Below, piece by piece: positions 1,444-46,504 of a DNA stretch of 64,000 bases. How positions within the stretch are numbered: the stretch's first letter is position 1; each line of letters starts with the position of its first letter. This stretch comes from Candidatus Saganbacteria bacterium (lineage in GTDB: Bacteria; Margulisbacteria; WOR-1; XYC2-FULL-46-14; XYC2-FULL-37-10), in NCBI GenBank assembly GCA_016223245.1, contig JACRPL010000016.1, positions 1,128 to 65,127 of the forward strand, in the 5' to 3' direction. The notes below the pieces were generated by a model. The model did not search any database. It was not told the origin of the DNA and saw only the letters and a list, made by a program, of their open reading frames with translations. Made by a program: the position numbers and the translations under genes.

Positions 1444-2649
1444 TTGAATAATATGAAAAAATTATTATATATTTTAATATTTACATTGTTGGTCATTGGA
1501 AATTGGTCATTGGTCATTTGCGCAGCGTCTCACGCGGCGTATTATTACCCCCAGTATTGGATCGGCGGGACAATACAAGACCCTGACGCGAAAGCGACGG
1601 GCATGGCCGTTTATTTTTATGAATTCCTGAACAAACTTCAGGATGGGAGCGGGTTTGCCTATGGGCTAGCTGAAAAAGATAAATATTTATTAAATGCCGG
1701 CAGTACGCCGATGACCGATCCGTTCTTGTTCCTCGGCGGGACCGACTATCACGTCTTTATCCCGAACAGCAATCAAGCCGATCCGGCAAACGGATATGGC
1801 GCAGATAAAGTCGATGTGAAATTATCAAGGTCGGGGATCGATTATGCGAACCTTGTGCTTACCAAAGGCGGCGGCAAGATTGACGGCAATTATGTATTTC
1901 CTCCGGCTCCGGCGGCAGGCCCGGGGGCTGGCATAGCGTATCCTCCGCCGTTATTCGATTATATAAAATTCGGCAACCGAATTTACCAAAAGGCGTTGGT
2001 TGAAAAGGGTGATAAGTTCATAGTGCCTGCGACGCCAAAAATATTGGCGAAAGTCCAAAGCGAGCTTGCCTTAAAATCCGGGTCATTATCGATCAAGATC
2101 AACGAATCCGGCGGGCCTACGCCAGCACTCACAATTGGCGAGACAAAAATAACCAACAAAGAGCTGTCTGCATCGGGTGTTGGCGCAAAAAGCGTAAATG
2201 CCCTGTCTTTTTCATACGATGTGCCTGAGGAAAACAAATTGGGCGAAGGGGTTAATACTATAAAGATATACGTCGAGAACGCCGACGGCACAGCTACGTT
2301 TGAGGTCGCGACAGTTACCGTCATGTCAGGCCCCGCGTCGATACTGGGGCCAGTGCTTACGTTCCCATCGCCTTTCTCCCCGACAAAAGATAAGACGGTT
2401 ACGATCCAATATACCCTTTCGACGGCAGCCGACATCGATGTCCATATCTTCTCGCCGACAGGCGAAATTGTCAAAAAATTCATACTGCTTTCGGGGCAGG
2501 AAGGCGGCAACGCGGGCGTCAACAAGATAACCTGGGACGGCGTGAAGCCAACAGGCCTGACGCTCGGCAATGCTATATATTCCGGCGTCGTTGTAAGCCA
2601 TGCGCAGGGAAAGATCCTTGGCAAGTTCATGTTGAGCGTTGTTGATTGA
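1444..2649 (+). CDS. Secreted protein with LLVIGNWSLVI-type signal peptide and FlgD-Ig-like C-terminal domain
   Basis: The signal peptide is encoded by (TTGGTCA)n heptamer repeats. The C-terminal ...ITWDGVKPTGLTLGNAIYSGVV resembles a FlgD Ig-like / secretion-tail domain. Confidence 0.55.
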   Translation: MNNMKKLLYILIFTLLVIGNWSLVICAASHAAYYYPQYWIGGTIQDPDAKATGMAVYFYEFLNKLQDGSGFAYGLAEKDKYLLNAGSTPMTDPFLFLGGTDYHVFIPNSNQADPANGYGADKVDVKLSRSGIDYANLVLTKGGGKIDGNYVFPPAPAAGPGAGIAYPPPLFDYIKFGNRIYQKALVEKGDKFIVPATPKILAKVQSELALKSGSLSIKINESGGPTPALTIGETKITNKELSASGVGAKSVNALSFSYDVPEENKLGEGVNTIKIYVENADGTATFEVATVTVMSGPASILGPVLTFPSPFSPTKDKTVTIQYTLSTAADIDVHIFSPTGEIVKKFILLSGQEGGNAGVNKITWDGVKPTGLTLGNAIYSGVVVSHAQGKILGKFMLSVVD

Positions 2650-2668
2650 TCTTTGAGGAGACAATTAA

Positions 2669-2992
2669 ATGGCCGAAGAAAAATTAAAAAAAGAATATTT
2701 TGAAATACTCTTAGAGGGCATAAGAAGCGATGTTAAGCTTGTTCTTGAAGGACACGCCGTATTAAATAAAAAGATCGATAATGGGTATGCTGTATTAAAT
2801 CAAAAGATCGATAATGGGTATGCTGTATTAAATAAAAAGATCGATGATGTTAAAGAGCTGGTAAAAGCGGTGGACAAAAAAGTGGACCAGAATTACAAGA
2901 TGCTGGATTATGATATCAAACAAGTGGGAAAGAGCGTCGGCGAAGTCAAAGAAAAGCTTAACGAGCATATACGTATGCCGGCTCATGCGTGA
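2669..2992 (+). CDS. Hypothetical repeat-containing protein (AVLN(K/Q)KIDNGY x3)
   Basis: It is preceded by an RBS (ggagacaat) and contains a 33-bp tandem repeat encoding an 11-aa unit. Confidence 0.4.
   Translation: MAEEKLKKEYFEILLEGIRSDVKLVLEGHAVLNKKIDNGYAVLNQKIDNGYAVLNKKIDDVKELVKAVDKKVDQNYKMLDYDIKQVGKSVGEVKEKLNEHIRMPAHA
2759..2849 (+). repeat. 33-bp tandem repeat (about 2.7 units) inside the CDS at 2669..2992
   Basis: gtattaaat[a/c]aaaagatcgataatgggtatgct is repeated head to tail. Confidence 0.8.
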
Positions 2993-3048
2993 AATGGTTA
3001 TCAGGCCGGTTTCAGGTTGTTGGTCGATATTATAGGGAGAAATTGCAA

Positions 3049-3243: not shown

Positions 3244-3354
3244 ATGGTTAATGAGGCCGCTTTATATTCATTTTTGTCTATTGTCATATTAGGGGCTATC
3301 GTAGTAACGATATTTTCTGTATTTTCCGGCAAGCCTCCAAAAGGGATGTTGTAG
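3244..3354 (+). pseudogene. KG(M/I)L-type small peptide paralog carrying a +1 frameshift
   Basis: The start MVNEAALYSFLSIVILGAI is in one frame and the conserved end VVTIFSVFSGKPPKGML* is in the +1 frame, with an extra C near 3300. Confidence 0.3.
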
Positions 3355-3438
3355 GGGAAAATGGATATAAGGAGATCAGGTAAAAAACCTGATTATCTGA
3401 TCATCAGATATTCTGCCTACTGATAATCTGATACTCTG

Positions 3439-3509: not shown

Positions 3510-3620
3510 ATATTGGCAGTTAGATAGAGTTGCCATTCGTAAGGAATGATTTTTGGCAAGTTTTTGTTATCGGTTGTTGATTGATGAAAAAGGGGGAAAA
3601 TTGATGAAAAAGGGGGGAAT

Positions 3621-5306
3621 ATGAAAAATAAAATACTAGTTTATTCGCTGTTAGTTGTAAGCTGTATGTTCCTGCTGTCTGCTGTCTCATTAGCGGAAAT
3701 ACCGAGGACTATTAATGTCCAGGGGCGTGTTAGCGATAAAGGCATTCCAATTTCTGACGGGAAATATCAAATGTCTGTTGACTTTACGGACAAAGATGGG
3801 AACACGATCGCAGATGGCACGGAAAAAATATTTAATGATAAAGAAATAAAGAATGGCATGTTTAATTTGCAAATTAATTTGACTGGTGCCAATGATTGGC
3901 AATTAAAATTTGATAAGCCTTATTGGGTTCTTGTTGAACTTCCGAACTTAGGCTTGAAGTTTTTGCAACCCTTAACCTCCGTTCCATACGCCTTAAACGC
4001 GGATAGCCTTGGCGGCCTCCCTGCGACTTCGTATGCCACAAAAGATGCAAGTGGAAAGATCATTGGCGCATCGGGAGATTTTGTGAAAAAGAGCGGGGAT
4101 GATATGAGCGGGGTACTTGGGATTTCAGCTAAGGATGAAACAGCGGCTTTACGCGTTACGGACGACAGGACGACTATTACTCCTCCATGGTTTGGAATAC
4201 CTTTTGGTGCTATTGCCGCCAAGGGCGATGGAACGGTTGGCTTAAGCGCATATAGTAAAAACAATATGGGGATTTATGCTAAATCAGATTCAAAGGCAGG
4301 AATATTTGGAGTTGGGAAAGAAGCAGGCGTACATGGTGAAAAATCCAATGATGTCTTTGGCGAGCTTGGGACTGCTCGTTATTTCGCAGGCGTTTATCCG
4401 CCCATGGGCGTTTTTGGAACATCAACGGATATAGGTATTTATGGCTCAGTGGGGGAATCCTCCAAAGCGACGACATTGTCAGGCAAAAAGATCCCGTCAA
4501 TTGGTGTTGCAGGCTGGTCGCCTGATGGGAGAGGGGTTAGCGGTGGAAGCTCCACTGGGAGTGGCGTCTATGGAAGTAGCTGGTATGAATTTCCGGATAC
4601 TAGCTTATGGGTAAACAATAAGGATTACGCAGCAGGTGGATATTTTGAAGCACAAAAAGGATTTGGAGTAATTGGAACTTCTTTTTCGAATAATGGCGGA
4701 AATGGTGGCGGAGTTTTGGGAAGAAGTTTGGATACAAACGATGTTGTATCAGGCTTTTTTGCGAAAAATTTTGGTGTTGCAGGAATTAGCAATAAAGGAA
4801 ATGGTGTTTTTGGCGTTAGCAGTATGAACGATGGAATTTATGGGTACTCGCATGATAAAAACCATGCTGGGGTCTACGCGACGAATGCTGCCGCCACAGG
4901 AAACGCGATAAAAGCAGATGGAAAAGTTCAAATTGGATCGACAAAGGACCAATATTATGCTGATGTTGTTTTGGAAATTAATAAAGGGAAAATACAAATA
5001 GATAACGAAAGTAAAACAACTACTGTTGGGCCTGCAGCTTATTCAATTCATAATGTGGAGATAAATAAAATCGTCGGGAAAGTAACATTAAACGCTTCCA
5101 ATTCCAATTCTTACAATGGCGTAACTGTAACTAATGGTTACGTGAAAAAAGATTCTATAATATTATTAACTATTTTTGACTCAAGCTTTTCTCCCGCATC
5201 GGCGCACGACCAAGCTCTAGTTATCACTAAGCAATATGATGGGGGCTTTGAAGTTGTTTTCAGGTCAAAGCCAATAGGTGGATTTAATTTTCTAGTGATC
5301 AATTAG
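3621..5306 (+). CDS. Glycine-rich fibre-like surface protein with signal peptide and tail-fibre-like KSGDDMSGVL motif (paralog family, subfamily B)
   Basis: It has a signal peptide, a PRTINVQGR motif, PYALNADSLGGLPATSY...KKSGDDMSGVLGI, GVxGxS-type glycine repeats and the C-terminal GGFNFLVIN shared with the 19375 gene. Confidence 0.6.
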   Translation: MKNKILVYSLLVVSCMFLLSAVSLAEIPRTINVQGRVSDKGIPISDGKYQMSVDFTDKDGNTIADGTEKIFNDKEIKNGMFNLQINLTGANDWQLKFDKPYWVLVELPNLGLKFLQPLTSVPYALNADSLGGLPATSYATKDASGKIIGASGDFVKKSGDDMSGVLGISAKDETAALRVTDDRTTITPPWFGIPFGAIAAKGDGTVGLSAYSKNNMGIYAKSDSKAGIFGVGKEAGVHGEKSNDVFGELGTARYFAGVYPPMGVFGTSTDIGIYGSVGESSKATTLSGKKIPSIGVAGWSPDGRGVSGGSSTGSGVYGSSWYEFPDTSLWVNNKDYAAGGYFEAQKGFGVIGTSFSNNGGNGGGVLGRSLDTNDVVSGFFAKNFGVAGISNKGNGVFGVSSMNDGIYGYSHDKNHAGVYATNAAATGNAIKADGKVQIGSTKDQYYADVVLEINKGKIQIDNESKTTTVGPAAYSIHNVEINKIVGKVTLNASNSNSYNGVTVTNGYVKKDSIILLTIFDSSFSPASAHDQALVITKQYDGGFEVVFRSKPIGGFNFLVIN

Positions 5307-5375: not shown

Positions 5376-6608
5376 ATGCAAGGTAAAAATAATGTTCTAA
5401 TTAGAAGCTTGGAAGAAGTAATTAATAATACAATAAAAGAGAAGCACTCCGCTCTTGTGTTCGGGCCGCGCCAGGTAGGGAAGACAACGCTAATAAAAAA
5501 GTGCCTATCAAAAACAGAAAATCTGGGATCGTATTATCTGCAAAACCCCGAAATACGGGAACAATTTGAGAAAGACCCTTCTTTGCTAATCCGCCAGGTT
5601 GAAGCTATTGACGGGAACCCGTATATTTTTGTCGATGAAGCCCAGAAGGTGCCGGAACTTTTTGACTCGATGCAGTACTTGATCGACGACAAAAAAGCGC
5701 AATTCTTGATCACGGGGTCTTCCGCTAGAAAATTGCGGAGGAAGGGAGCAAATATGCTTCCTGGCAGGGTGAAATCCTGCCGCTTAGACCCGCTAAATTG
5801 GGGCGAATTCGGATGGATAAAAGGAAGCCATATCAAGGAATTAAAAATTGACAATATCAATTCGAGAGTTGACTATTCGCTGGAAAAAATGCTTGTTTTC
5901 GGAGCCCTGCCCGGCATTGTATTGATCGAAGATGAAGAAGAAAGAAAGGATATCCTGAAATCGTATTCGAATATTTATTTGGAAGAAGAGATCAGGGCGG
6001 AATCCTTGAGCAGAAAGATCGGGGCATTTTCAAGGTTCCTGGAACTGTCGGCAAACGAATCGGGGACAAGCCCGAATCTGTCGAAGCTTTCAATGGAAGC
6101 AGGGGTAAGCGCTCCTGCCATCAAAGAATTTTATAACCTGCTTGTTGATACGCTTGTGGCTGAAAAAGTCGAACCATACCTGAAAAATGCGAGAAAAAGG
6201 ATACTATCATCGCCAAAATATTATTTCTTCGATATCGGGGCAAGAAATGCCGTGTCCAGGATGCCATTGAAAATGGAATTGGTAAATACGCAAAAAGGGA
6301 CGCTTTTTGAGCATGCTGTAATTCTGGAAATCATCAGAAGAATAAGAGTATTAGGCGAAAATTATAAAGTTTGTTTCTGGAGGACAAGTGGAGGGGCTGA
6401 AGTGGATTGTATCCTCGATCTTGGGGATAGAGTTGTACCTATAGAAATCAAGGCCAGCAAGAAGGTCGCATTATCCGAGGTTAAAGGCTTGGAAATATTT
6501 TTGAATGATTATCCCGAGGCCGAAAATATTGGTTTTGTAATTACCATGGGGGATAGGCCGGAGAAAATAACAGATAGAATAATTGCTGTTCCGTGGGATT
6601 ACATATAG
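5376..6608 (+). CDS. AAA-type ATPase of the COG1373 / DUF4143 family
   Basis: It has a Walker A motif (GPRQVGKTTL) and a Walker B motif (FVDEAQ), and its length and architecture are typical of COG1373. Confidence 0.6.
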   Translation: MQGKNNVLIRSLEEVINNTIKEKHSALVFGPRQVGKTTLIKKCLSKTENLGSYYLQNPEIREQFEKDPSLLIRQVEAIDGNPYIFVDEAQKVPELFDSMQYLIDDKKAQFLITGSSARKLRRKGANMLPGRVKSCRLDPLNWGEFGWIKGSHIKELKIDNINSRVDYSLEKMLVFGALPGIVLIEDEEERKDILKSYSNIYLEEEIRAESLSRKIGAFSRFLELSANESGTSPNLSKLSMEAGVSAPAIKEFYNLLVDTLVAEKVEPYLKNARKRILSSPKYYFFDIGARNAVSRMPLKMELVNTQKGTLFEHAVILEIIRRIRVLGENYKVCFWRTSGGAEVDCILDLGDRVVPIEIKASKKVALSEVKGLEIFLNDYPEAENIGFVITMGDRPEKITDRIIAVPWDYI

Positions 6609-6650
6609 TCGCTCACTTTTAATTGATCGGCGCATCATCCATCCCTATAA

Positions 6651-6806
6651 CGATCTAATAATAGATATTTTATTTTTGATTCAAGTTTTAAAGCTTCACC
6701 GGCACAGGATCAAGCGCTTGTCATCGCAAAACAATATGATGGCGGCTTTGAAGTTATGTTTAGGCCAAAGCCCACGGGCGGCTTTAATTTTCTTGTTATA
6801 AATTAA
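6651..6806 (+). pseudogene. C-terminal remnant (about 51 codons, no start) of a subfamily-B fibre paralog
   Basis: It translates to ...FDSSFKASPAQDQALVIAKQYDGGFEVMFRPKPTGGFNFLVIN*, which matches the C-terminus of the 3621 gene, and there is a stop immediately upstream. Confidence 0.6.
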
Positions 6807-6928
6807 ATTCATAGGCCCGTATTTGTAGTTTCTTTATCCGCCCAAAGTAATTTTTGGGCGAGGTTTTTTTGAGTATGAGGAATGTAAATACTTGAAACTT
6901 GACAAATACAAGGAATATGGTATGATTA

Positions 6929-8062
6929 TTGCAAATGTTGCCACGCTATTATCAGAATTTAGAGGAATATCTACATCCCAATAAGGTTTTGGTGATATAT
7001 GGTGCAAGGCAAGTTGGCAAAACTACGCTTCTCCAAACTTTTTTCAAGAATACTAAGCTTAAATATAAAATAGACTCTGGTGATAATATTAAGGTTCAGG
7101 AAATATTGGGTTCACAAGATTTTTCAAAAATATTGGATTACGCGTCAGGGTATCAGCTTATAGTATTGGATGAAGCGCAAAGGATCCCGAATATCGGAAT
7201 GGGGCTCAAGATTCTTGTCGATCAAATCCCGGGGATTCTAGTGATCGCTACAGGGTCTTCTTCTTTCGAGCTTTCCGGCCAAATTGGCGAGCCGCTAACC
7301 GGACGGAAAAGAACCCTTACAATGTATCCATTGTCCCAAATAGAGCTGCTCAAGCTATTTAATGCCCATGAATTAAATGAAAAGCTAGGCGAATGGCTCA
7401 TTTTCGGAGGATATCCAGCAGTCATTACTTCAAAAACAAGAGAAGAGAAAATTAGCGTACTTGAGGAATTGGTGAATTCCTATTTGTTGAAAGATATACT
7501 TGAACTCGAGAAAGTTAAAGGAGCCCAGGTGCTAGTTAATCTTCTCAGATTGCTTGCTTTTCAGGTTGGGAACGAGGTTTCTTTGTCCGAACTCGCGAAT
7601 AAATTGAATATTGATTATAAAACCGTGGCTCGGTATATAGACCTTTTTGAAAAAGCTTTTGTCCTATTTGGCTTGTCTGGATTTTCGAGGAATTTAAGGA
7701 AGGAAGTTACAAGGAAGAAGAAATATTATTTTTATGACAATGGCATCCGAAATGCCATCATTTCAAATTTTAATAATCTTGATATGCGCGATGACATAGG
7801 AAAATTGTGGGAGAACTTTTTAGTCTTAGAAAGGCTTAAAACACAGGAATATATGCAGGTACACGCAAATAACTATTTTTGGAGAACTTGGGACGGGAAG
7901 GAAATTGATTGGATCGAAGAGAGAGAAGGGAAACTCTTCGCTTATGAATTTAAATACAAAAAAGATAAAGTTGGCTTGCCTAAAGATTTTATAACCTCAT
8001 ATCCAAATTCGGCATGGGAAATAATAACATCTGATAATTATTTGCATTTTCTCCTGACTTAG
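6929..8062 (+). CDS. AAA-type ATPase of the COG1373 / DUF4143 family (second copy)
   Basis: It has Walker A (GARQVGKTTL) and Walker B (VLDEAQ) motifs. Confidence 0.6.
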   Translation: MQMLPRYYQNLEEYLHPNKVLVIYGARQVGKTTLLQTFFKNTKLKYKIDSGDNIKVQEILGSQDFSKILDYASGYQLIVLDEAQRIPNIGMGLKILVDQIPGILVIATGSSSFELSGQIGEPLTGRKRTLTMYPLSQIELLKLFNAHELNEKLGEWLIFGGYPAVITSKTREEKISVLEELVNSYLLKDILELEKVKGAQVLVNLLRLLAFQVGNEVSLSELANKLNIDYKTVARYIDLFEKAFVLFGLSGFSRNLRKEVTRKKKYYFYDNGIRNAIISNFNNLDMRDDIGKLWENFLVLERLKTQEYMQVHANNYFWRTWDGKEIDWIEEREGKLFAYEFKYKKDKVGLPKDFITSYPNSAWEIITSDNYLHFLLT

Positions 8063-8142: not shown

Positions 8143-8171
8143 TTGCCCCCCCCCCAGAAATATGCTATTAT
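8143..8171 (+). promoter_or_regulatory. Sigma70-like promoter TTGCCC-N17-TATTAT whose spacer contains a C10 homopolymer (8146..8155)
   Basis: The sequence ttgccccccccccagaaatatgctattat sits about 12 bp upstream of ATG 8183. Confidence 0.45.
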
Positions 8172-8182: not shown

Positions 8183-9874
8183 ATGAAAAGAGTATTGTAT
8201 ATTTTATTGGTCATATTATTGGCAATTAGCTCAAGCGCTTTTGCAGCTACCCCGCATATTATAACTGTCCAAGGCAGATTGTTGCGATCTGGCGGCATCC
8301 CCGTCAACGGAATTAAAACCGCGACCTTTATGATAATCGAGGAGCCAAATTTGTTATTATGGTTGAGCGATCCAATGCAAGTAACCCTAATAGCGGGTGT
8401 TTTTTCAGTTGATCTCGACTTGGATAAGGTTGATGACGAAAGCTTGAGCTCCCCGAATCTATTAACTTTTGATAAGCCTTGTAAAATAATTACTAATATT
8501 GATGGAACGGTTTTTGAACAAAAGATCGCTGCGGTTCCTTACGCCTTAAACGCGGAGAAACTTAACGGTATGAATATCACGAAATTTGCAACACTGGATG
8601 CGAGCGGCAATATTATCGGCGCGAAGGCGGAAAAGTATGTAAAAAAGACTGGCGATGTAATGAGCGGCGGGCTTATTATATCAAGCGGCGGGGCAGATTT
8701 TGGGCTAGTGGCGAGCGGTGAAATCGGGGGTGTTAAAGGAACATATCTGGACAATAGCGATGCTATTGGGATGCTTGGTTACGGCAAAAAGCTGGGATTT
8801 GCAATTGTTGAGGGGAAAAAAATCAGCAAGGGAACCGAATTTTATGGCGCATACGGTAAATTCACCGATCTCGCGCAAGGAGGTCTTGGCGTCCAATTCC
8901 CCGGGAAAAAATCGTTCGGAGCCTGGGGTGTCGGCGGCGTTGCTGGGGGTTATTTTGAAAGCCAAAGCGGATATGGCTTGATTGCGATCGCAAGCAATGG
9001 GTCCGAAGGCGGGGCTTTGGGCGGCTATAATGTATTTGATACATCTGATACTAAGTTTGGAGTTGCAGGAATAAGCGATTCTGGCAATGGAGTTTATGGC
9101 GATGGCGACGCGGCCTATGGCGGGGAAATAAACGGGATATTTAAGAAAGCCGGTGTTTTTGGAAAAGGCGGGGCTAAGACGAGCGGTGTTCTGGGGTATT
9201 CTGAAGTCGACAACCCAAATCGCGCAGGAGTTGTCGGTATCAATCCTAACGGATACGCGGGGATATTCTCCGGCATTAAAGGCATGAATGTATCAGGGTC
9301 TCTTGAGGTAAAAGGTGATATCCGAGGAATTGATTGGATAAGCTTTGCACCATTTGATAAAAATTGGCCTGCACCTTTCCCGACCGACCTGGCCGACACC
9401 GTGATAGGTTATTCGAGCGGCGGCATGTTTGAAGAAGCTGTTCAGGTTGTTTCTCCAACAGAATCAATGGACCCGTATATTGTCTTTGCAAGCTCCTATC
9501 TTAACACTCCTAAGAGAGGAAAGATATTGATCAAGGCAACAGGGACTGTTCAGACTTCGGATGACGGCAACTCTCCATTTTGGGTTTCGGTCAAGCTTTT
9601 ACAGACAACTTACCAAGGAACGACGAAGAAAGAATTGCCAGGCGATCTTATTACAGTGGCAGGCACAAAAGCCAGCAAGATATTCAAGTATCCGTTCACT
9701 GTACAGGGGATGTTTGATGTTTCATCTGGTTTCCCAACCTTGTTTAACCCTAATAACTACGCCGCGCTTATTAGCAATCAATTTACTTTATCTTGCGCCA
9801 TGAAAACTTACGGCGGAAAGCCTTTAAATATTACGGGAAACATTCAGGCAATTTATATGCCGAATATTAATTAA
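8183..9874 (+). CDS. Glycine-rich fibre-like surface protein (paralog family); likely start MKRVLYILLVILLAISSSAFA
   Basis: It has a signal peptide, TPHIITVQGRL, PYALNAEKLNG...KKTGDVMSGGLII and glycine repeats. The track ORF start at 8138 crosses the poly-C tract and lacks a signal peptide. Confidence 0.55.
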   Translation: MKRVLYILLVILLAISSSAFAATPHIITVQGRLLRSGGIPVNGIKTATFMIIEEPNLLLWLSDPMQVTLIAGVFSVDLDLDKVDDESLSSPNLLTFDKPCKIITNIDGTVFEQKIAAVPYALNAEKLNGMNITKFATLDASGNIIGAKAEKYVKKTGDVMSGGLIISSGGADFGLVASGEIGGVKGTYLDNSDAIGMLGYGKKLGFAIVEGKKISKGTEFYGAYGKFTDLAQGGLGVQFPGKKSFGAWGVGGVAGGYFESQSGYGLIAIASNGSEGGALGGYNVFDTSDTKFGVAGISDSGNGVYGDGDAAYGGEINGIFKKAGVFGKGGAKTSGVLGYSEVDNPNRAGVVGINPNGYAGIFSGIKGMNVSGSLEVKGDIRGIDWISFAPFDKNWPAPFPTDLADTVIGYSSGGMFEEAVQVVSPTESMDPYIVFASSYLNTPKRGKILIKATGTVQTSDDGNSPFWVSVKLLQTTYQGTTKKELPGDLITVAGTKASKIFKYPFTVQGMFDVSSGFPTLFNPNNYAALISNQFTLSCAMKTYGGKPLNITGNIQAIYMPNIN

Positions 9875-9877
9875 ATC

Positions 9878-11452
9878 ATGAAAAAATTATATAAATTAAT
9901 AATTACATTGTTGGTCATTGGCCATTGGTCATTGGTCATTATCGCACCGGCGGCCGCTATTCCCAACAAAATAATTAACATCCAGGGAAAACTGACGGAC
10001 GATCACAATAAGATCGTCAAAAGTGTAAAACAGATCCGTGTCAGCATGGTTGATTCGAACAATCAAAGCATTTGGATTTCGCCTGTTATCACCATAACGG
10101 TAAATAATGCCGGAATATTCAATGCTGAATTTGACCTATCTTCCGCAACAGGCGTTGATTTTAATTCGCCTTACAGCCTTATTATTAATGTTATCGATGA
10201 TGCCGACAAAGTTACGACTCTCAATCCGCAGTCTTTGACCTCTGTTCCTTATGCTTTAAATAGTGACAAATTTAACGGCCTTTCATCTTCGAGTTTTGTC
10301 GTGCTCGATGATTTTGGGGAAATTGCTGGTGAACTTGCGGGCAATGTTAAAAAATCCGGGGATTCAATGTCCGGGAGCCTCAAGATAACAGGCGGTGAAA
10401 GCGATGATTATGGCGTCGAGGCAAGCGGGTAGTCGGGCGCAGTGAAAGGGACATGGATAGGGGATAATAATTTCTTCGGGGTATTAGGCGGCTATAGTTA
10501 CAAATATGGGGACGATGTGTCTTTGCCCGGGGTGTATGGGCAGCATTCAAGTTATACTGGCGCTGCCAGAGGAGGCCTTGGCGTTATAAGAAATATTCTA
10601 TGGTCTTTTGGTGTTTGGGGAAAAGGGCTGACCGCGGGCGGATATTTTTCTAGCGCGAACGGGACAGGTGTCCTTGGAAAATCTACGGGAACCGGCGGAA
10701 TATTTGGCGCTTATAATTCAAATTCGACAACTGACAAGTATTATGGAGTCGCAGGTGTTAGCGTTGCAGGCAACGGGGTGTATGGCGAGATAACTAGCGA
10801 TACGTTTAGCAGCGAGTGGAAAGCAGGGGTTTACGGCAAAGGAGGCGCAAAAACCTCTGGAGTTATGGGATACACAACAACAGATAAAGACAATGCGGCG
10901 GCAATTGTCGGGATCAATCCAAAAGGATACGGAGGGGATTTTACAGGAAAAAACGGCGTAAAAATAAATGGGCCGCTTGAAGTTTCGGGCGGGATACAAG
11001 GCAAGGGGCTTCACTGGGCGGAAAAAGGAATTACCGCATCTAATTTTTTTACCAAGACAAGCATTGGCGGTTATTATTACCATAAAATGATCAAGCATAT
11101 ATATGTGACATTCCCATATTCAGGCTATGCCCTTGTTCAAGCAAGCGGCATATTCTCAAACAATGACGAAAGTTTTTCCCAAATGTCCGCGCAAATAACC
11201 GACAACGAGTATTTGGATCCTGACGGAAAAAACTTTATTATTGATGGATCGGTCGCTGTTGTGGGATTAACAAATCCAACTGGGCAAGGATTCTATCCAT
11301 CGTTTCCATTTGCGTCATCAAGGGTTTTTGGAGTGGAAGGAGGCAAGTCGTATCATTTTCATTTGATCGGATTTCTAAAAACAACGAAAAGCGACGTTAA
11401 ATTTAATTTTGATGGCGCCCTTAATTGCATGTTCTTCTCGAGGAAATACTGA
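9878..11452 (+). pseudogene. Fibre-like surface protein paralog interrupted by an in-frame TAG at 10430..10432
   Basis: The ORFs 9878..10432 and 10442..11452 are in the same frame and the paralog alignment runs straight through the stop (GVEASG*SGAVKGTWIG versus GIESSGKTAGVKG). Confidence 0.5.
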
Positions 11453-11453
11453 T

Positions 11454-13007
11454 ATGAAAAGATTATCTATGAATATAATTATTACATTGTTGGTCATTTA
11501 TCATTGGTCATTTGTCATTTGTGCGCCTGCGCGCGCGGATGTCCCCAAAATAATGAATATCCAAGGCAAATTGACCGATCCGAATTCCAAGGCTGTTTCC
11601 GGGGCCAAAAAATTAAGATGTTCTCTGGTTGACAATAAAGGCGCGGCTGTTTTCAATTCTAAGGTTTATGATATCCCGCTAAATAGCGACGGAGTGTTCA
11701 ATGTGGATATTGACATATCTTCCACTCTCGCAGATTTTAATTCGCCATATACTTTGAATATTATTATTATCAATGAAGACGGGTCGACTTCTATTCTTGA
11801 GCCTAAGGCTCTAACTTCCGCACCATATGTATTAAATGCCGGAATGCTCGGAGGGCTTAAGCCCGCCTCTTTTGCGGCAAAAGATGCGGATGGCAAAATA
11901 GTCGGGTCGGTCGCCGGTTATGTCAAAAAAAGCGGGGATGAAATGAGCGGGGGCTTAAAAGTGAACGCCGGTAAATCTAATTTCGGGATCGAATCAAGCG
12001 GAAAAACGGCAGGGGTCAAAGGTTTATCGGCTTCAAGCGGCGATAGGTGGGGAGCGCTTGGCGGAGAGAATTATGGCGTTTACGGTCAGTCAACGGCTAA
12101 TGCGATAGGCATAATAGGCGTTTATGGCGTTTATGGCGTTTATGGCTCTGGAAAAACGTTTGGAGGGTATTTTCAAAGTTCAACAGGTATTGGCGCTATC
12201 GGGAAAACAACCGGCGCTAATGGCGGAGTGTTTGGCGGATACAACACCGCAGAGGCTAATGATAAATGGTTTGGGGTTGCAGGGGCAAGCGATTCGGGAA
12301 ACGGGATATATGGCGAAGTAGCCAGTAATACTTTGGACAGCGATTGGAAGGCCGGAGTTTACGGCAAGGGGAGCAATACGACGAGCGGAGTTTTTGGATA
12401 TACTGATTCAACGAGTGGCGCAGGCGTTAAGGGCGTAGATAATAGCGGATATGGGGCGATATTTTCGGGGGAAAAGGGCGTAAAAGTCGACGGACCTGTA
12501 AATATTTCAGGGACAATTACCGCAAACAATTTGCCGGGAATTGCTTACGATAACTATTTTAATTTTTCTAATACCAATCTAAAGTCGAGCACGGCAGTAA
12601 TCATTAAATCTGTTGAAATAGATGTGCCTGCTCCCGGGTATATATTGGTCCAATCAAGCGGAACCTTGTATTCATACGCCACTACCGATGTTTTAATTGG
12701 CTTAGGAATACTTAATATTGATAATTTCTCTTCTCAAGTCTTTTATGATGTATACTTTGGGACAAATCCATTGGTTTCGTATGTTTTTCTAGCGGATAAT
12801 TCGAAATTTAATTTTTCATGCCAGTTTGAAGCAAAAAAATCGATGGGCCCCAATATATATTTCCCATTTTCTACAAGCAATGTATTTGAAACGAAAACTG
12901 CCGGCAAACAAAAGTTTTATTTGACGGGATATCTTAAACATTCTGCTTCTTCCGGCCGATTAGATGTTTCAGGCTCGATACAAGCTATCTATTTCCCAAG
13001 CAAGTAG
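11454..13007 (+). CDS. Glycine-rich fibre-like surface protein (paralog family, subfamily A)
   Basis: It begins MKRLSMNIIITLLVIYHWSFVICAPARA, then PKIMNIQGKL, PYVLNAGMLGG...KKSGDEMSGGLKV and repeats such as GVYGVYGVYG. Confidence 0.6.
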   Translation: MKRLSMNIIITLLVIYHWSFVICAPARADVPKIMNIQGKLTDPNSKAVSGAKKLRCSLVDNKGAAVFNSKVYDIPLNSDGVFNVDIDISSTLADFNSPYTLNIIIINEDGSTSILEPKALTSAPYVLNAGMLGGLKPASFAAKDADGKIVGSVAGYVKKSGDEMSGGLKVNAGKSNFGIESSGKTAGVKGLSASSGDRWGALGGENYGVYGQSTANAIGIIGVYGVYGVYGSGKTFGGYFQSSTGIGAIGKTTGANGGVFGGYNTAEANDKWFGVAGASDSGNGIYGEVASNTLDSDWKAGVYGKGSNTTSGVFGYTDSTSGAGVKGVDNSGYGAIFSGEKGVKVDGPVNISGTITANNLPGIAYDNYFNFSNTNLKSSTAVIIKSVEIDVPAPGYILVQSSGTLYSYATTDVLIGLGILNIDNFSSQVFYDVYFGTNPLVSYVFLADNSKFNFSCQFEAKKSMGPNIYFPFSTSNVFETKTAGKQKFYLTGYLKHSASSGRLDVSGSIQAIYFPSK

Positions 13008-13024
13008 TTTAATGTTCTACGATT

Positions 13025-13288
13025 TTACCGATAAATATCTTTCCGATGCCCAATTCGAAGTATTATTATAGTTTTGCTTTTTTGCTCAACGTCGTACAGC
13101 ACCCTATAATCCCCGATACGGATACGGAATTGTGCTACATCGTCAGCAATAAGGCGTTTCACTCCATCAGGAAAAGGGATTGATTCCAGTTTCATAATTG
13201 CCGCATCAATACGTTTAACCTCAAAATGATCAATTTTTTTAAGATCTTTCTTGGTGCGAGGAGTGATAAGTATCTGATAAGCAGACAT
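13025..13288 (-). CDS. RelE/ParE-family type II toxin
   Basis: It is 87 aa with a RelE/ParE-like sequence (…RIRIGDYRVLYDVEQKSKTIIILRIGHRKDIY). Confidence 0.65.
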   Translation of the reverse strand: MSAYQILITPRTKKDLKKIDHFEVKRIDAAIMKLESIPFPDGVKRLIADDVAQFRIRIGDYRVLYDVEQKSKTIIILRIGHRKDIYR

Positions 13289-13504
13289 TTAGTTCCGTCC
13301 GACTAAAAGACGATATTTACGATAGGGAACGGCTTTTCCTCTATTGTGATCTTTTCTGCCTTGACGAATAGATTTTTTTAGCTGTTTGGAAGTTGTCTCA
13401 AGGATTATATCCTCCACCAGCGACCAGTCCTTCAATATCTCTTCTTGGAGTCTTTCTATTCTGCCCAATTTCTTTAAAATAAGATTTTTTGACGCTTCCG
13501 TCAT
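13289..13504 (-). CDS. Putative antitoxin partner of RelE (about 71 aa, start MTEASKNLILKKLGRIE)
   Basis: It sits immediately upstream of the toxin with the stop/start adjacent. The longer track ORF 13289..13738 is extended by antisense ilvD-fragment sequence. Confidence 0.4.
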   Translation of the reverse strand: MTEASKNLILKKLGRIERLQEEILKDWSLVEDIILETTSKQLKKSIRQGRKDHNRGKAVPYRKYRLLVGRN

Positions 13505-13620
13505 TTTTTCACCCAAAATAATTTTAGCATATATTTCTGATCGAGTCAAAAAGGGATTGGAATTGAGTCCATCCGTCCCTATCTTTTTTATGTTATAATT
13601 TATAGACTTAGGAGCTGATT

Positions 13621-13890
13621 TTATGCGAAGCGATAATATTAAAAAAATGGGGCCGCCCCGCGCCTTAGTCCACCGGCCTTCCTGCCATTTGTGATTGGAT
13701 CGCCATGGGACACAAGGGGATGCATTATTCTCTGCCATCGAGAGAACTCATAGCAGACACAGTTGAAACAGTAGCCGAAGCCCATCAATTAGATGGTCTT
13801 ATTTTGCTAACTGCTTGCGACAAGATAACACCCGGGATGCTTATGGCGGCGGCACGGTTGAATATCCCTTCTATGTTAATCATTGTTGTA
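13621..13890 (+). pseudogene. Degenerate duplicated 5' fragment of ilvD ([11 protein letters not shown]... fused to ...[66 protein letters not shown])
   Basis: It is about 90% identical at the DNA level to 15129..15183 and 15337..15540, and the atgttataatt promoter motif upstream is also duplicated. Confidence 0.8.
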
Positions 13891-14233: not shown

Positions 14234-14587
14234 GTGATTTGTTCAGCCGCGCTCGGGGTAAAGGAAAAAAAGATGGACGAAGAAATAAAAAATATAACAA
14301 AGCGGATCGCCGAAAAATTTAATCCCAGAAAACTCATTCTCTTTGGCTCGTCTGCTTTAGGTGCGAGAAAAGAAAATAGCGATGTGGATTTATGCGTAGT
14401 TAAAGACTATATCCAAGATCGGACAATGGATTCAGTCGCGATCAGGAAAATTATTGGGAAAAATTTGATACCTTTTGATATTGTAGTTTTAGGCAGAGAT
14501 GAATATGACAGCCGGAAAAATATTTGGGGAACTTTGCAGTATGAGATAGATAAAAAGGGAATAGTTCTTTATGAGCGCAGAGATTGA
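14234..14587 (+). CDS. Nucleotidyltransferase-domain protein (MNT-type antitoxin/toxin component)
   Basis: It has the LILFGSSALGARKENSDVDLCVV motif (GS...D.D). Confidence 0.6.
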   Translation: MICSAALGVKEKKMDEEIKNITKRIAEKFNPRKLILFGSSALGARKENSDVDLCVVKDYIQDRTMDSVAIRKIIGKNLIPFDIVVLGRDEYDSRKNIWGTLQYEIDKKGIVLYERRD

Positions 14588-14957
14588 AAAAGAGAAAGCC
14601 GTAATAATAGGCGAATGGGAGCGGAGAGCGCTTGATGACCTTGTATCGGCGGAAATCATATTGAAGGAGAGCGATAAATATGAGATTTCCGTCTATCATT
14701 CGCATCAGGCAGTTGAAAAATTTTTGAAAGCAAACCTGTTAAAACTGGGGCAAACATTTAAATTCACCCACGATATTGATGTTTTGTTCGAACAAGTTTT
14801 TGGCGATGATAAAGATAAGGCGGCAGCCGAAAAAATCGCCCATCTTAACGCTTTATATCCGTCTTTAAGATATCCCTTTGGGGAAAAGATAACCAAGGAC
14901 CAGGCGATTAATTGCCTGGCGATAGCAAAAGAAGCGATTAGCCGGTTGCGAAAATAG
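14571..14957 (+). CDS. HEPN-domain protein (partner of the MNT at 14234)
   Basis: It overlaps the MNT gene and carries HSHQAVEKFLKANL, matching the HEPN R/H..EK.LKA signature. Confidence 0.55.
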   Translation: MSAEIEKEKAVIIGEWERRALDDLVSAEIILKESDKYEISVYHSHQAVEKFLKANLLKLGQTFKFTHDIDVLFEQVFGDDKDKAAAEKIAHLNALYPSLRYPFGEKITKDQAINCLAIAKEAISRLRK

Positions 14958-16772: not shown

Positions 16773-16800
16773 GATAGCAGGAGGTCACTCTGAAGGGAAA

Positions 16801-17530: not shown

Positions 17531-17769
17531 GCCTCCCAAAATATTTCAAAGGAATATTGTGGTTCGCAGATTTCAATAAACTCTCCCTAAAAGAGGACAG
17601 AAATATTATTTTGTTCCAAGCGCTTGAGAAGGGTAGAATGGAGCACCTCAAATATCTGAAAAACAAGCTTGGCGCAAAAGCGATCGTTGATTTTGCAAGA
17701 AAAAATTCGAATAAATTCAGCAGGAAAAGCGTATTAACTTTCGCGGAAACGGTTTTTGGTGGCAAATAG
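17527..17769 (+). CDS. Small hypothetical protein, probable partner (AbiEi-like antitoxin role) of the downstream AbiEii-type gene
   Basis: It overlaps the start of the 17756 gene and is 80 aa. Confidence 0.3.
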   Translation: MSLPKYFKGILWFADFNKLSLKEDRNIILFQALEKGRMEHLKYLKNKLGAKAIVDFARKNSNKFSRKSVLTFAETVFGGK

Positions 17770-28271: not shown

Positions 28272-28285
28272 TTCTAATCTTTTTT

Positions 28286-36314: not shown

Positions 36315-38141
36315 GTGAAAAAAGTTATTAGGTTGGTTTTGTGTCTCTGTGTCGCTATGTCTCTATGTCCAATGGTTAATGCTATCGAGCTTCCCTCCTT
36401 TTACAGCGAAGAAATCGTTGTTACCGCTGCAAGGATGCTTCAGCTCAAAACAAGCATTCCGTGGAGCGTTTCGATAATAAACAGCGATGACCTCAGATTG
36501 AAGGGCGCGAAATACTTATCGGATGCCTTGAACGGAGAAATTGGGACAGATATTGTCAACTATGGGGGCCTGGGCGCCCTCTCTTCTGTAAGGCTTAGGG
36601 GCTCTTCATCCCAGCAAGTTTTGATCCTGGTTGATGGAAAACGAGTGAATTCGCCATTGAACGGCGGAGCTAACCTTTCGAATTATCCAGTGGATGAGAT
36701 CGAGAAGATAGAGGTTGTCCGAACGCCTCTTTCGGCGGTTTATGGGGCGGATGCGGTGGGCGGGGTAGTTAATATAATCACAAAGAAGCCGGTTGGCGGG
36801 GAAAAAGCCGTAATTGTTTCTCTGGGTTCTTTTAACGAACAGAAAATCAGGTTGTCTTATAATTATTCCGATGATAAATGGCGAACATATTTTAATGCCG
36901 GACTAAACAGGGCTGACGGATCCCGCGCTAACAGCCAATTTGCGGAATCGGATTATAATGTAAAACTCAGCAGGCTTCTAACCGATATAACTGATCTTGA
37001 ACTGGAGTATTCCAATTTCTCAGCCGATAAAAGGATTCCCGGATCGGCATCTTCCCCTTCGCCAAACGCGTTGCAGGAAGACAGGAATAACATCCTTGGT
37101 GTTTCGCTTAGGTCTTCGCCCGACCCAAAATCAAGCTATCTTGCAAAGATTTATCAAAGGGGAGAAAACAGCCGTTACAAAGATCCCAATCAATTAACCG
37201 ACAACCCCTATCAGGCAATAATTTCAGGAATTGAAATTGAAAAGCGCGCGGATAAATTAGTCGTTGGGATTGATGCAAGGCAGGACGCCGCGGACGGCAG
37301 CGCAATTTCAGGTTATAAAGCAGTCAGGAATATAGCGATATTCGCTGAAAATACTTTTGGTCCGTTGTCGCTTGGGTTAAGGGAGGATTTGCATTCAACT
37401 TTTGGCTCAATTTTAACGCCGAGAGCCGGAGTCGTAAAGCAAATAAACCAAAATACTTCTATTTCATTAGCATATTCCGGCGCATTCAGAGCTCCTGTCT
37501 TAAACGAGCTTTACGGCAATTATCCCGCTTATTACGCAGGAGGGCTCCCCTATCTGGGGAATCCCAATCTTAAGCCGGAAAAAGGGTATTTAGCTGAAAT
37601 TTCAGTCGAATACTCTCAACAAGCCCGCATAACCGTATTTTCTGGAAAAACTTCCGATCTTATAACGCCCAGCTGGCCGGTTAATGCTTCGTTTACGGCT
37701 TATTCTCCAGTAAATCTCAATTCTATCACCCGGCAGGGAATAGAGCTCGAGTATAAACAAGCAATTACCCCATTGCTAAGAAGTGTTTTTAATTATACGT
37801 ATCAAAATTGCGTAGACGACAGCAACGGAGATAAAATTGTTTACCTGCCGAACAATAAAGCCAATCTGAGTTTGTTGATTGGCGATAGTATTGGTGGTGG
37901 AAGTTTCGTTGCCAAATATGTAGGGGAAAGACCTTATTTTGCTTACCCTGCACCAACTTATGCGGCAACTAAAGCCCTTTTACCAGACTTTTCTACAGTA
38001 GATCTTCATTTGTTTAGGAAAATAGGGATGGCAGAAGCTTATTTGGGAGTCGAGAACCTTTTTGATAGAAGCTATCAGTTGATAGCCGATTATCCTCAGC
38101 CTGGTCGGAGATTTTCATTTGGAATGAAATATGGGTTTTAG
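36315..38141 (+). CDS. TonB-dependent outer-membrane receptor
   Basis: It has a signal peptide and a plug domain (EEIVVTAAR...; [28 protein letters not shown]), and the barrel ends with a terminal F. Confidence 0.8.
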   Translation: [608 protein letters not shown]

Positions 38142-44769: not shown

Positions 44770-44829
44770 GCATAATGATCGAAAATAATTTAAGCGGATT
44801 TCAGGCGGGCAACATTTATTTTTTAATTT

Positions 44830-45789
44830 TTACAAGTATTCGGGCGAAAAAGAAATGGATATATATTGGCTGGTCAGCTCCGATTGGAACGCATCCGCCA
44901 TGTATGCGTAATCGAACGAAAAACCCGATGCTTTTAGCCCCAAGCCAAAAGTATAATTGTTCGCTATATTACTTTGGCCGATCGCTTTTTGACTAACGCC
45001 CGCCCTAAATGATAAATTTTGAGCTACTTTCCACTCCGTCCCAAAATGTAAAAGCAACGGCTTTTGTTCCGATAATGAGCTTTCGCTGTCCGCGGCAATA
45101 AGGATACTGGATCCTATCAATTTATATGATCCGCCGAGCCTCAATGCCGCCGGGAGCTTATCGGCGTTGCTCGATCCCCAAGAAATATTGCCTCTCAAGA
45201 AATTCTGGAAGCTTAATCCAAAATTAAAATCTTTTGGCCCGGCTAATATCAGCCCGAAATCGCAATCTATCCCGGAGCCGTTTCCGTCAACAACGCCTCC
45301 CAGGAAATTCCTCATATATTTGACATTGAGGCCAATAGACAAGTTTCCCATGGCAGGGCTTACTTTCATGATCTTATTCATATTTTGCGCGGCGGTCAAA
45401 ATAAACATCGAGCTTGAATATGAAATAGGGGAGGCGGAAGCCATGCTTGCCTTATCTGTCGTGCCGAATCCCGCAGGGGATAATGCGGAAATATAATTGA
45501 GGCCGAAAAACCCGTTCATTGCGGCGATTGTCCCGCCATACAATTTATAATCGACAGTGTTCAGGGCCTTTGTCTGCATGGTAGTTGCTTCAAAGGTCTT
45601 CGTTTGTGAAATTCCAGCGGGATTGAACGCGATCGAATTTGAATCCCCAAAGATCGCCGTGAACGAATTGCCCATGGCAAGGGGTCTTGCGCCGACGCTT
45701 GAATTTAGGATATCGGTTGACAAACCCGCGAGACATATCTTGGGAAATATTGCCAAAAGACAAATGCTTATTAATAATTTATTAGTCAT
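44830..45789 (-). CDS. Outer-membrane beta-barrel protein of the FadL/PorV-like superfamily
   Basis: It has a signal peptide and the N-terminal motif GARPLAMGNSFTAIFGDSNSIAFNPAG. Confidence 0.45.
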   Translation of the reverse strand: MTNKLLISICLLAIFPKICLAGLSTDILNSSVGARPLAMGNSFTAIFGDSNSIAFNPAGISQTKTFEATTMQTKALNTVDYKLYGGTIAAMNGFFGLNYISALSPAGFGTTDKASMASASPISYSSSMFILTAAQNMNKIMKVSPAMGNLSIGLNVKYMRNFLGGVVDGNGSGIDCDFGLILAGPKDFNFGLSFQNFLRGNISWGSSNADKLPAALRLGGSYKLIGSSILIAADSESSLSEQKPLLLHFGTEWKVAQNLSFRAGVSQKAIGQSNIANNYTFGLGLKASGFSFDYAYMADAFQSELTSQYISISFSPEYL

Positions 45790-46504
45790 AGACAGCTATT
45801 TGCCCATATTTAATGACTTTTCCCTGATAAATAATGATATATGGATAAGCGCCGTTGCCGACTTGCGATCCAAAATCGGTATTTCCGTTCCATGAGACCT
45901 CGTTGTATCCCTGTCTGCCGCCGAGCCCAACACCCGCCGAGTCCTGTGCTCCTGCAGTTCCGGTCAGGCGCTTTACCATATTTCCGTTAAGATCATAGAT
46001 ATTTATTGATGTGTCGCCGTCGTCGGTCAAAGTATATGTGATCTTTGTTGTTTCGCCGTGAAGCGGCTTAAAAGGGTTTGGATAATTCATTGCATTGCCG
46101 GTGACAGTTACAGTTCCTAGGACCGAAACCGAAAATGTCGACGTGGAAGTTTCGGCCCCAAGGTTATTTGCGCTAACTTGGATTATATGGGAGCCTTTAT
46201 CGAGCGCCGAAGTTACAGTATACGTTGCCTCATAGGATGTTTGTCCTTCGGTTGTGGGAGATATTGTGAAAGTTTTAATGCCGCCATCGATCGTAAGAGA
46301 GATCGTCATTTTATTAATGCCTGTCGCGTCTGAAATTTTTGCGGAAATTATTGGGAGCCGTCTTACCGTTGTGCCGGCGGAAAGAGTTACTCCGTCCGTA
46401 TAAATTGTTATAGTTGGAGCGGCGACCGCTTGCGCGGTAATGACCAATGACCAATAACCAATGACCAATAATGAAAATATTATAATAGCAAATATCTTTT
46501 TCAT
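45782..46504 (-). CDS. Secreted protein with LLVIGYWSLVI signal peptide and FlgD-Ig-like C-terminal domain
   Basis: A (TTGGTCA)n heptamer repeat encodes the signal peptide, and the C-terminus reads ...YNEVSWNGNTDFGSQVGNGAYPYIIIY. Confidence 0.5.
   Translation of the reverse strand: MKKIFAIIIFSLLVIGYWSLVITAQAVAAPTITIYTDGVTLSAGTTVRRLPIISAKISDATGINKMTISLTIDGGIKTFTISPTTEGQTSYEATYTVTSALDKGSHIIQVSANNLGAETSTSTFSVSVLGTVTVTGNAMNYPNPFKPLHGETTKITYTLTDDGDTSINIYDLNGNMVKRLTGTAGAQDSAGVGLGGRQGYNEVSWNGNTDFGSQVGNGAYPYIIIYQGKVIKYGQIAVYD

Follow-up and report, generated by a model that had tools for sequence, protein, structure and literature searches.

Heptanucleotide arrays in signal-peptide coding DNA

We studied one stretch of DNA, hereafter the window (64,000 nucleotides at its full length), from a contig of a metagenome-assembled genome (MAG) of Candidatus Saganbacteria bacterium. 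Exact matches of its proteins assign the window to a contig of 91.6 kb with locus tags of the form HZC34_06xxx. In this window, tandem arrays of seven-nucleotide units, above all of the unit TTGGTCA, encode the hydrophobic cores of the signal peptides of secreted proteins; arrays on other contigs of the MAG were inferred from proteins. Tandem Repeats Finder, which we used for the array calls in the window, reports period-7 repeats of 4.3-4.4 copies at 1489-1518, 9911-9940, 11493-11522, 46439-46469 and 19408-19438, and one of 2.3 copies at 3672-3687. The first-pass annotation of this DNA had described six such tracts, and all six were found where it had placed them, inside the codons of N-terminal signal peptides.

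The coding DNA of four genes contains TTGGTCA arrays: g1453 (1489-1518), g9878 (9911-9940) and g11454 (11490-11522) on the forward strand, and g45782 (46439-46469) on the reverse strand. Each array consists of four units followed by TT. Units 1, 3 and 4 read TTGGTCA in g1453, g9878 and g45782, where unit 2 is TTGGAAA, TTGGCCA and TTGGTTA, respectively; the array of g11454, with the units TTGGTCA, TTTATCA, TTGGTCA and TTTGTCA, has degenerated furthest. A common reading frame, TTG GTC ATT GGN NAT TGG TCA TTG GTC ATT, gives the core peptide LVIG(N/H/Y)WSLVI in three of the genes and LVIYHWSFVI in g11454. The other two tracts, both on the forward strand, are a CTGCT[T/G]T array of about 4.4 copies at 19402-19438, in the gene of a 616-amino-acid protein, and a CTGCTGT tract of 2.3 copies at 3672-3687, in the gene of a 561-amino-acid protein.

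To these tracts we add a fifth TTGGTCA array outside any gene (60701-60730, reverse strand), a decayed copy in the gene g8138, and two arrays of other units on the forward strand. One of the latter is TTTGGAT, a different heptamer present in 4.3 copies at 47810-47839, which codes for the N-terminal hydrophobic segment of a C39-like peptidase; the other is an 8-nucleotide (nt) array of 3.5 copies of TGTCTCTA at 36342-36369, within the signal peptide of a TonB-dependent-receptor-like gene. All TTGGTCA arrays of the window have 4.3 units, four of the five are coding, and no long intergenic TTGGTCA array is present in the 64 kb. Of the eight perfect period-7 tracts in the window that reach 16 nt or more, seven lie within signal-peptide coding sequence. 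With up to two mismatches allowed, TTGGTCATTGGTCA has 14 matches in the window, compared with 0.31 expected from shuffled sequences, and CTGCTGTCTGCTGT has 4 matches, compared with 0.09 expected; a chance origin of the arrays was rejected on these values.

Signal peptides and the proteins that carry them

The array of g1453 is part of the signal-peptide module MKKLLYILIFTLLVIGNWSLVICAASHA (1453-1536, forward strand), which belongs to a secreted protein of 398 amino acids with a C-terminal FlgD_ig-like domain. The modules MKKLYKLIITLLVIGHWSLVIIAPAAA of g9878 (9878-9958) and MKRLSMNIIITLLVIYHWSFVICAPARA of g11454 (11454-11537), both on the forward strand, belong to two paralogues of a fibre-like family that we call INxQG, and the module MKKIFAIIIFSLLVIGYWSLVITAQAVA of g45782 (46421-46504, reverse strand) precedes a protein of 240 amino acids, one domain of which is similar to the PorU C-terminus or to the C-terminal domain (CTD) of type IX secretion system (T9SS) substrates. 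The decayed module is found in g8138, another INxQG paralogue, whose signal peptide MKRVLYILLVILLAISSSAFA (8183-8245, forward strand) is three codons shorter and retains a single intact TTGGTCA at 8207, followed by TTGGCAA. Two further INxQG paralogues, also on the forward strand, use the other heptamer: the signal peptide MKKLILFLALCSAFCFLLSAVLFA of the 616-amino-acid protein (19375-19446) has the CTGCT[T/G]T core, and that of the 561-amino-acid protein (3621-3695) contains the 2.3 copies of CTGCTGT.

On inspection, the N-termini with a TTGGTCA core have an MKK n-region, the sequence LLVIGxWSLVI after residues rich in I and L, and an AxA motif in the forms SHA, AAA, ARA and AVA. Because a positively charged n-region, a hydrophobic core (about 7-15 residues are expected) and a small-x-small motif are all present, we infer that they act as ordinary Sec-type signal peptides cleaved by signal peptidase I. 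One of the carriers, g9878, is broken in the window by a single G-to-T nonsense change (TAG) at 10430, so that the open reading frames (ORFs) 9878-10432 and 10442-11452 are one gene; its counterpart in Logan contig L001 (SRR12113407) is intact and encodes 524 amino acids.

The INxQG family has five paralogues in the window (3621-5306, 8183-9874, 9878-11452, 11454-13007 and 19375-21225), which share an N-terminal (I/V)P..IN(I/V)QG(R/K)L motif, Gly-rich GVxG repeats and variable C-termini. The family is rare: only three database proteins were found, of which one is the query's own near-identical strain variant, and the metagenomes of the Joint Genome Institute (JGI) yielded none, while a metagenome scan with the alignment of the paralogues returned 387 pattern matches of which none was confirmed. 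The proteins match NCBIfam NF053851, the N-domain of the Bdellovibrio mosaic adhesive trimer fibre, weakly and below threshold, and they are possibly trimeric fibre adhesins.

Several other features lie in or beside the carrier genes. Inside g11454, a perfect 9-nt repeat of GGCGTTTAT (3.3 copies, 12117-12146) encodes GVYGVYGVYG; it is in frame, so that a change in its length would alter the Gly-rich region without a frameshift. Downstream of g1453 there is an intergenic tandem repeat of 33 nt (2759-2849; 2.8 copies, 94% matches), and a duplicated ATTGATGAAAAAGGGGG(G)AA block at 3580-3610 lies directly upstream of the start of the gene at 3621, whose ribosome-binding region is thereby doubled. 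The end of g45782 is overlapped by the gene of a PorP/SprF-like outer-membrane protein (44830-46504, reverse strand, for the pair), and the g45782 product is itself similar to the C-terminal portion of PorU, the T9SS sortase, or to a C-terminal sorting domain of T9SS, with an E value of 6.6e-17, which is below the curated cut-off. These similarities hint at type-IX-like secretion parts in a Saganbacterium.

Tract purity, length and comparison between strains

A unit length that is not divisible by three, in tracts inside the signal-peptide codons of secreted proteins, had led the first-pass annotation to describe these genes as phase-variable contingency loci, in which slipped-strand mispairing would add or remove 7 nt, frameshift the gene and switch surface proteins stochastically on and off. 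The arithmetic of this proposal is borne out, since a gain or loss of 7 nt in the 5' coding region yields products truncated to 29-65 amino acids, and there is a documented precedent in Neisseria opa, where CTCTT units in the leader region are gained or lost at about 1e-3 per cell per generation (PMC3745409).

The composition of the tracts argues against it. Their longest perfect period-7 runs measure 13-20 nt (1.9-2.9 units), no tract has three uninterrupted units, and every TTGGTCA array is interrupted near its centre. The most permissive criterion published for heptanucleotide phase variation is at least three uninterrupted units, and the functional heptamer tracts that are known have 13-38 units (PMC2651432); with their longest perfect run below three units, the tracts of the window fall short of even the permissive threshold. 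Moreover, opa has been phase-locked experimentally through synonymous interruption of its repeat (PMC3745409), and the interrupted state of phase-locked opa appears to be the one found naturally in these arrays.

The comparison with a second, near-identical strain, represented by Logan contigs of SRR12113407 and by protein variants (the 1489 tract lay outside it), shows five of the six tracts unchanged despite single-nucleotide polymorphisms (SNPs) elsewhere. Contig L001 is 99.95% identical to 9811-13652 of the window (3.8 kb), with two SNPs and both arrays unchanged, and contig L002 carries the 46439-46469 array, also unchanged. For the other heptamer, the variant P0009 of the 616-amino-acid paralogue (19375) and the variant P0011 of the 561-amino-acid paralogue (3621) differ from the window proteins by three and two amino-acid changes, respectively, and have identical CTGCTKT-built signal peptides.

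A profile of the four TTGGTCA-core signal peptides, searched against 1.84 billion representative proteins, added five carriers, the other matches being short (LVIGHWS)n junk ORFs. Three of the five (P0013, P0015 and P0044) are encoded on other contigs of the same MAG; P0017, an INxQG protein, comes from a JGI metagenome contig of 51% GC (L124), and P0085, whose core reads LVIGHWLLVI, from another Logan sample. P0013, P0015, P0017 and P0085 are in frame, with LVIGxWSLVI or a core of equal length that departs from it by a point change. P0044 (HZC34_06920), a protein of 55 amino acids with a signal peptide of the g1453 type, has an in-frame insert of 11 residues (CLLSEASAKEG) inside the array. 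If its codons are as we guess, and this is a guess only, the two ends of the insert would read CCTTC...GAAGG, and it would be a small palindromic insertion.

All nine carriers, four from the window and five from the search, are in frame in three organisms, in a protein-based search that is biased against OFF alleles, and the core has 10 residues in every one of them except P0044. In the DNA of two carriers, the L124 array has TTGGGAT as its second unit and the L125 array has TTGGTTA as its third and fourth; their other units are TTGGTCA and both end in TT, so that they differ by point changes and have the same unit number (4.3) as the window arrays. P0015 and P0017 have the core LLVIGIWSLVI in common, although their identity across the N-terminal 134 residues is only 46%. 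The sole broken carrier of the window, g9878, owes its state to the nonsense SNP and not to the repeat. The variation in unit number that the first-pass annotation had proposed to look for in other genomes is thus absent among these nine genes and at the five tracts compared between the strains.

Two observations could still be read in favor of slippage: the near-invariance of units 1, 3 and 4, described below, could mean an ongoing realignment within the array, and contig L002 breaks off at an array edge. Against these, an array is also present in a non-coding transfer RNA (tRNA) leader. Considering the short and interrupted tracts, the invariant strain and the carriers that are all in frame, we regard a slippage switch as very unlikely.

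A better candidate for contingency in this window may be a C10 homopolymer (8146-8155) within the 17-nt spacer of a promoter-like site upstream of g8138 (8143-8171), which has the classic layout of phase variation. The site, with TTGCCC at -35 and a TG-extended TATTAT at -10, is the sole promoter-like one upstream of this gene, whose actual start is the ATG at 8183. Weighing against a switch there, C8 tracts are also found inside housekeeping genes (54822-54829 and 62525-62532).

Exchange of the module between unrelated genes

Among the four genes, the signal-peptide module of about 80 nt is 73-82% identical at the DNA level, versus about 50%, the random level, downstream of it. The proteins themselves are of different kinds: the similarity of g1453 to g9878 and g45782 is confined to residues 1-28, g1453 and g45782 have a distant C-terminal FlgD_ig-like domain in common (27% identity), and g9878 and g11454 are INxQG paralogues with 40% identity. 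Given the peptide and the window's own codon usage, these very codons would be used with a probability of about 5e-5 per gene; therefore, the copies share DNA ancestry, and convergent selection on the peptide was rejected as the cause of their common codons.

The distribution of module subtypes points in the same direction. In its signal-peptide DNA, g45782 is nearly identical to P0017, and this is the sole similarity between L124 and the window, although the mature proteins belong to different families, one resembling the PorU C-terminus or T9SS CTD and the other INxQG. Likewise, the n- and c-regions of g8138, an INxQG protein, match those of P0013, an unrelated protein. Since module subtype and mature protein family are discordant, genes have exchanged their 5' ends. 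The first-pass annotation had proposed gene conversion or a shared recombination site from the conservation of the DNA around the repeats. The conserved flank ACATTG is indeed present in three of the four genes, the fourth having TCATTA, and a past exchange of 5' ends is supported by the presence of the module on unrelated proteins; active switching finds no evidence.

Within the module, conservation is uneven. Over the six coding copies, units 1, 3 and 4 show one synonymous change in 42 sites, whereas the n- and c-regions on either side of the array have diverged. The central positions of unit 2, which are the third base of the Gly codon and the first base of the His codon, read AA, CC, TT, GA or TC, so that all four bases occur at the Gly third position.

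A non-coding copy of the module lies in the leader of a tRNA gene. The fifth array (60701-60730, reverse strand), composed of TTGGTCA, TTGGAAA, TTTGTCA, TTGGTCA and TT, is situated 17 nt upstream of tRNA-Glu(UUC) (60610-60683, reverse strand), which directly follows it, and downstream of a promoter-like site (60783-60754). It resembles the g1453 type, with TTGGAAA as unit 2 and GCGCAGCG in the c-region. An in-frame ATG...TAA is present upstream, a signal-peptide-like TSAA follows the core, and the 21-amino-acid ORF reads MLVIGNLSLVITSAARYGPIV. From these features, the copy looks like a relic, the severed 5' end of a gene of the g1453 type.

The same observations might be explained by recombination that is still active, in which the array would serve as a crossover site for a site-specific recombinase, or as a homologous hotspot, and 5' ends would be swapped or inverted, as in vsa and vpma of Mycoplasma or mba of Ureaplasma. 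The arrays occur in both orientations (1489, 9911 and 11490 on the forward strand; 46439 and 60701 on the reverse strand) and in one reading frame, so that crossovers between them would be in frame; signal-peptide subtype does not follow protein family, a severed module stands upstream of tRNA-Glu, the array is conserved above its flanks, and L002 terminates at an array edge. However, Pfam scans of the window ORFs found no intact recombinase near any of the copies, but only the zinc-ribbon remnant of a serine recombinase at 28209-28667. Each gene is equipped with a start codon and a complete signal peptide, and no arrangement of a single expression site with silent cassettes is seen; L001 and L002 are collinear with the window, and an inversion between forward and reverse copies would flip 35-59 kb of housekeeping genes. 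We consider ongoing recombinational variation unlikely.

The recombinase remnant, of which only the zinc-ribbon domain is left, overlaps a pair of tRNA-Pro genes (28197-28667) and is adjoined by an ORF of 1577 codons without a Pfam match (28911-33644, reverse strand). Together they may be the scar of an integrated element.

A DNA scan of metagenomes for the lineage-specific flank together with the array gave no matches. In L123, a contig from a related lineage that bears homologues, seven genes for secreted proteins have ordinary, non-repetitive signal peptides.

Occurrence of the TTGGTCA unit in other organisms

We scanned 185,579 species-representative genomes for the unit, and the observations that follow refer to the matches listed, among which neither the genome of the window nor other Saganbacteria appear. 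Among these matches, TTGGTCA arrays have 4-33 units and are mostly intergenic; their hosts are Nostoc, Anabaena, Calothrix and other cyanobacteria, with Nostocales abundant, as well as Planctomycetota, Bacteroidota, Verrucomicrobiota and Acidobacteriota. The form TT(G/T)GTCA is presumably the short tandemly repeated repetitive sequence (STRR) that Mazel et al. named STRR2 in 1990. Because 7 is coprime to 3 and the forward strand of the array has no stop codon, this strand encodes LVIGHWS as a cyclic peptide whichever of the three frames is used; on the reverse strand a TGA is always encountered. The 7-bp arrays of cyanobacteria are STRRs whose function is not known (PMC2670836), and Saganbacteria are a non-photosynthetic sibling lineage in the Cyanobacteriota/Melainabacteria group (NCBI taxonomy; PMC6349859).

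A coding use of the unit is also found in a verrucomicrobial MAG of the genus Rariglobus (L103; JANODO010000165.1), which has 66% GC. Four adjacent amidase/asparaginase genes in this MAG have the arrays as signal-peptide cores, in the same frame as in the window, with signal peptides such as MHRLRLLLALVIGHCSLVIAANA and tandem forms such as LSLVIGHWSLVIRRFAAAFVIGHSSLVISG. There are six TTGGTCA/TTCGTCA arrays of 4.6-4.9 units in 8 kb (1690-1771, 3342-3375, 6162-6243 and 7314-7346, reverse strand); two of the four genes have tandem double modules, and all arrays are located in N-terminal signal peptides. As in the window, the Rariglobus arrays vary at their centre, with TTGGACA as the variant. 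Among 120 asparaginase orthologues, the array core is present in P0089, P0092, P0095, P0104 and P0122 and decayed in P0098, P0099 and P0107, and orthologues with 83-86% identity have ordinary signal peptides. In these enzymes, therefore, the array has been gained, lost and decayed over short evolutionary scales, always in frame and with a core of about 10 residues. Contamination was rejected as an origin of the arrays in Verrucomicrobiota, since they recur in orthologues of independently assembled genomes. The recruitment of TTGGTCA as a signal-peptide core has occurred independently in at least two phyla.

These occurrences bear on two further explanations. According to the first, LLVIGxWSLVI would be a lineage-specific sorting motif read at the peptide level, comparable to YSIRK or ESPR, which directs its carriers to a dedicated export route such as the type-IX-like neighbors. 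The peptide is conserved over nine proteins, two of the carriers have domains like the PorU C-terminus or T9SS CTD, and a PorP/SprF-like gene adjoins one of them. On the other hand, core position 5 varies freely (H, N, Y or I), the identity of the codons is unexplained by selection on the peptide, and the same core is found on verrucomicrobial periplasmic asparaginases and amidases whose close orthologues use ordinary signal peptides. Furthermore, no specialized signal-peptide model of NCBIfam or Pfam matches, and membership of a specialized signal-peptide family was rejected for this reason. A dedicated sorting signal seems to us the most improbable of the explanations discussed here.

The second explanation places the function in the nucleic acid: the array, early in the transcript, would be a cis element bound by a protein or small RNA that co-regulates the mRNAs of secreted proteins, and the tRNA-Glu copy would be a target or a decoy. 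It would account for an array conservation that exceeds both the needs of the peptide and the conservation of the flanking signal-peptide codons, for the persistence of TTGGTCA as an AT-rich unit where genomic GC is 51% or 66%, and for the copy in the non-coding tRNA leader, which has the same orientation and follows a promoter-like site. Nevertheless, the 64-kb window has no complementary (antisense) copy and no Rfam match except tRNAs, the TSAA c-region and the upstream in-frame ATG and stop of the tRNA copy are a better fit to the pseudogenised 5' end of a gene, and asparaginase orthologues manage without the array. We give this regulatory element as little credence as the slippage switch.

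A probable repeat-derived signal-peptide module

The explanation that we consider probable is that the TTGGTCA arrays are a Sec signal-peptide module that was derived from a repeat, was spread by recombination of 5' ends and is now fixed in length and stabilized, and that they are not a switch. An STRR-like heptamer array next to a start codon would have provided a ready-made hydrophobic core, since 4.3 units encode the ten residues LVI-GHWS-LVI, a usual length for a core. The module of about 80 nt, with its MKK n-region, 4.3 units and AxA region, would then have spread by duplication and 5'-end recombination to at least nine genes of several unrelated families, leaving a severed copy in the tRNA-Glu leader. 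The arrays would now be fixed at their functional length, with the central interruption suppressing slippage, as if they had been selected against it.

Some observations weigh against this explanation. The near-invariance of units 1, 3 and 4 at synonymous sites is not predicted by plain selection at the peptide level, and the stronger conservation of the array relative to its flanks suggests that the units are homogenised among themselves, or that a constraint acts on the DNA or RNA. In the second strain, L002 ends exactly at the 5' (upstream) edge of the 46439-46469 array, which could mean heterogeneity at this place or a k-mer common to another locus. In addition, our comparisons rest on assembled contigs and proteins, and length variants of low frequency may exist within the population.

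In a bolder reading, TTGGTCA would be a hydrophobic cassette at the DNA level that is used across phyla: an STRR-type repeat, coding for one core-like peptide whatever the frame, would be actively copied into or between the 5' ends of secreted-protein genes, where it creates or replaces signal peptides, and would be held at 4.3 units by a nucleic-acid constraint, either homogenisation or the binding of a factor, with the copy in the tRNA-Glu leader included. We see this as an outside possibility. If it is true, STRRs of the cyanobacterial type would for the first time have a concrete biological role, and signal peptides an unusual route of birth.

Other genes in the window

Genes of defence or toxin-antitoxin type are dense among the housekeeping and fibre genes of the window (5376-8062, 14571-14957, 16750-18415, 21232-22049, 24319-25323 and 48601-49266). 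They include putative nucleotidyltransferase/HEPN-like pairs, assigned by eye from their translations, two AbiEii toxins, and two AAA_14 ATPases confirmed by Pfam, one of them with DUF4143; a third ORF (6929-8062) looks similar.

Comparison with known systems

The closest parallel in layout is provided by the opa genes of Neisseria, in which a repeat whose unit is not a multiple of three, (CTCTT)n, also lies in the DNA for the hydrophobic part of a signal peptide in a multigene surface family (PMC3745409). The opa tracts, however, are long and perfect, their unit number differs between copies and cells, and many copies are out of frame, whereas the arrays described here have fewer than three perfect units, are interrupted and of fixed length, are all in frame, and show no strain differences. 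Repeats in leader peptides are usually read as phase variation; the same layout without the properties of a switch calls for caution when genomes of uncultured bacteria are screened automatically for phase-variable genes.

The Mycoplasma and Ureaplasma systems vsa, vpma and mba also have a short conserved 5' coding sequence across surface-protein genes, some of them inverted, and exchange of 5' ends. Those systems possess a recombinase of their own, express from one site and keep silent copies truncated at the 5' end; we see none of these features here. The signal peptides of the YSIRK-G/S, ESPR and KxYKxGKxW classes are likewise recognizable and common to unrelated secreted proteins of one lineage, but they are conserved as peptides, mainly in the n-region or an extension, with ordinary codon variation, while in the present case it is a DNA repeat encoding the core that is shared, and no curated model matches.

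With the cyanobacterial STRRs, the arrays have in common an identical unit, including the TTTGTCA variant, dispersed copies and a host in the Cyanobacteriota/Melainabacteria group. STRRs are typically longer, intergenic and found in heterocystous cyanobacteria, in many dispersed copies often of more than five units, whereas our arrays are short, of fixed length and in frame as signal-peptide cores; there are five in 64 kb, with at least three more on other contigs (from proteins), and arrays of the unit also occur in the PVC (Planctomycetes-Verrucomicrobia-Chlamydiae) and FCB (Fibrobacteres-Chlorobi-Bacteroidetes) phyla. The STRR-type heptamer TTGGTCA is thereby linked to a coding use, in which a frame-independent hydrophobic peptide serves as a signal-peptide core that has moved between unrelated genes. 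If the conservation at the DNA level proves to be functional, it would offer a testable route both to the role of heptamer repeats and to the origin of signal peptides. Leader peptides encoded by repeats and STRR-type repeats are each already known, and it is the reuse of the same unit across phyla, together with its conservation at the DNA level, that is worth following.

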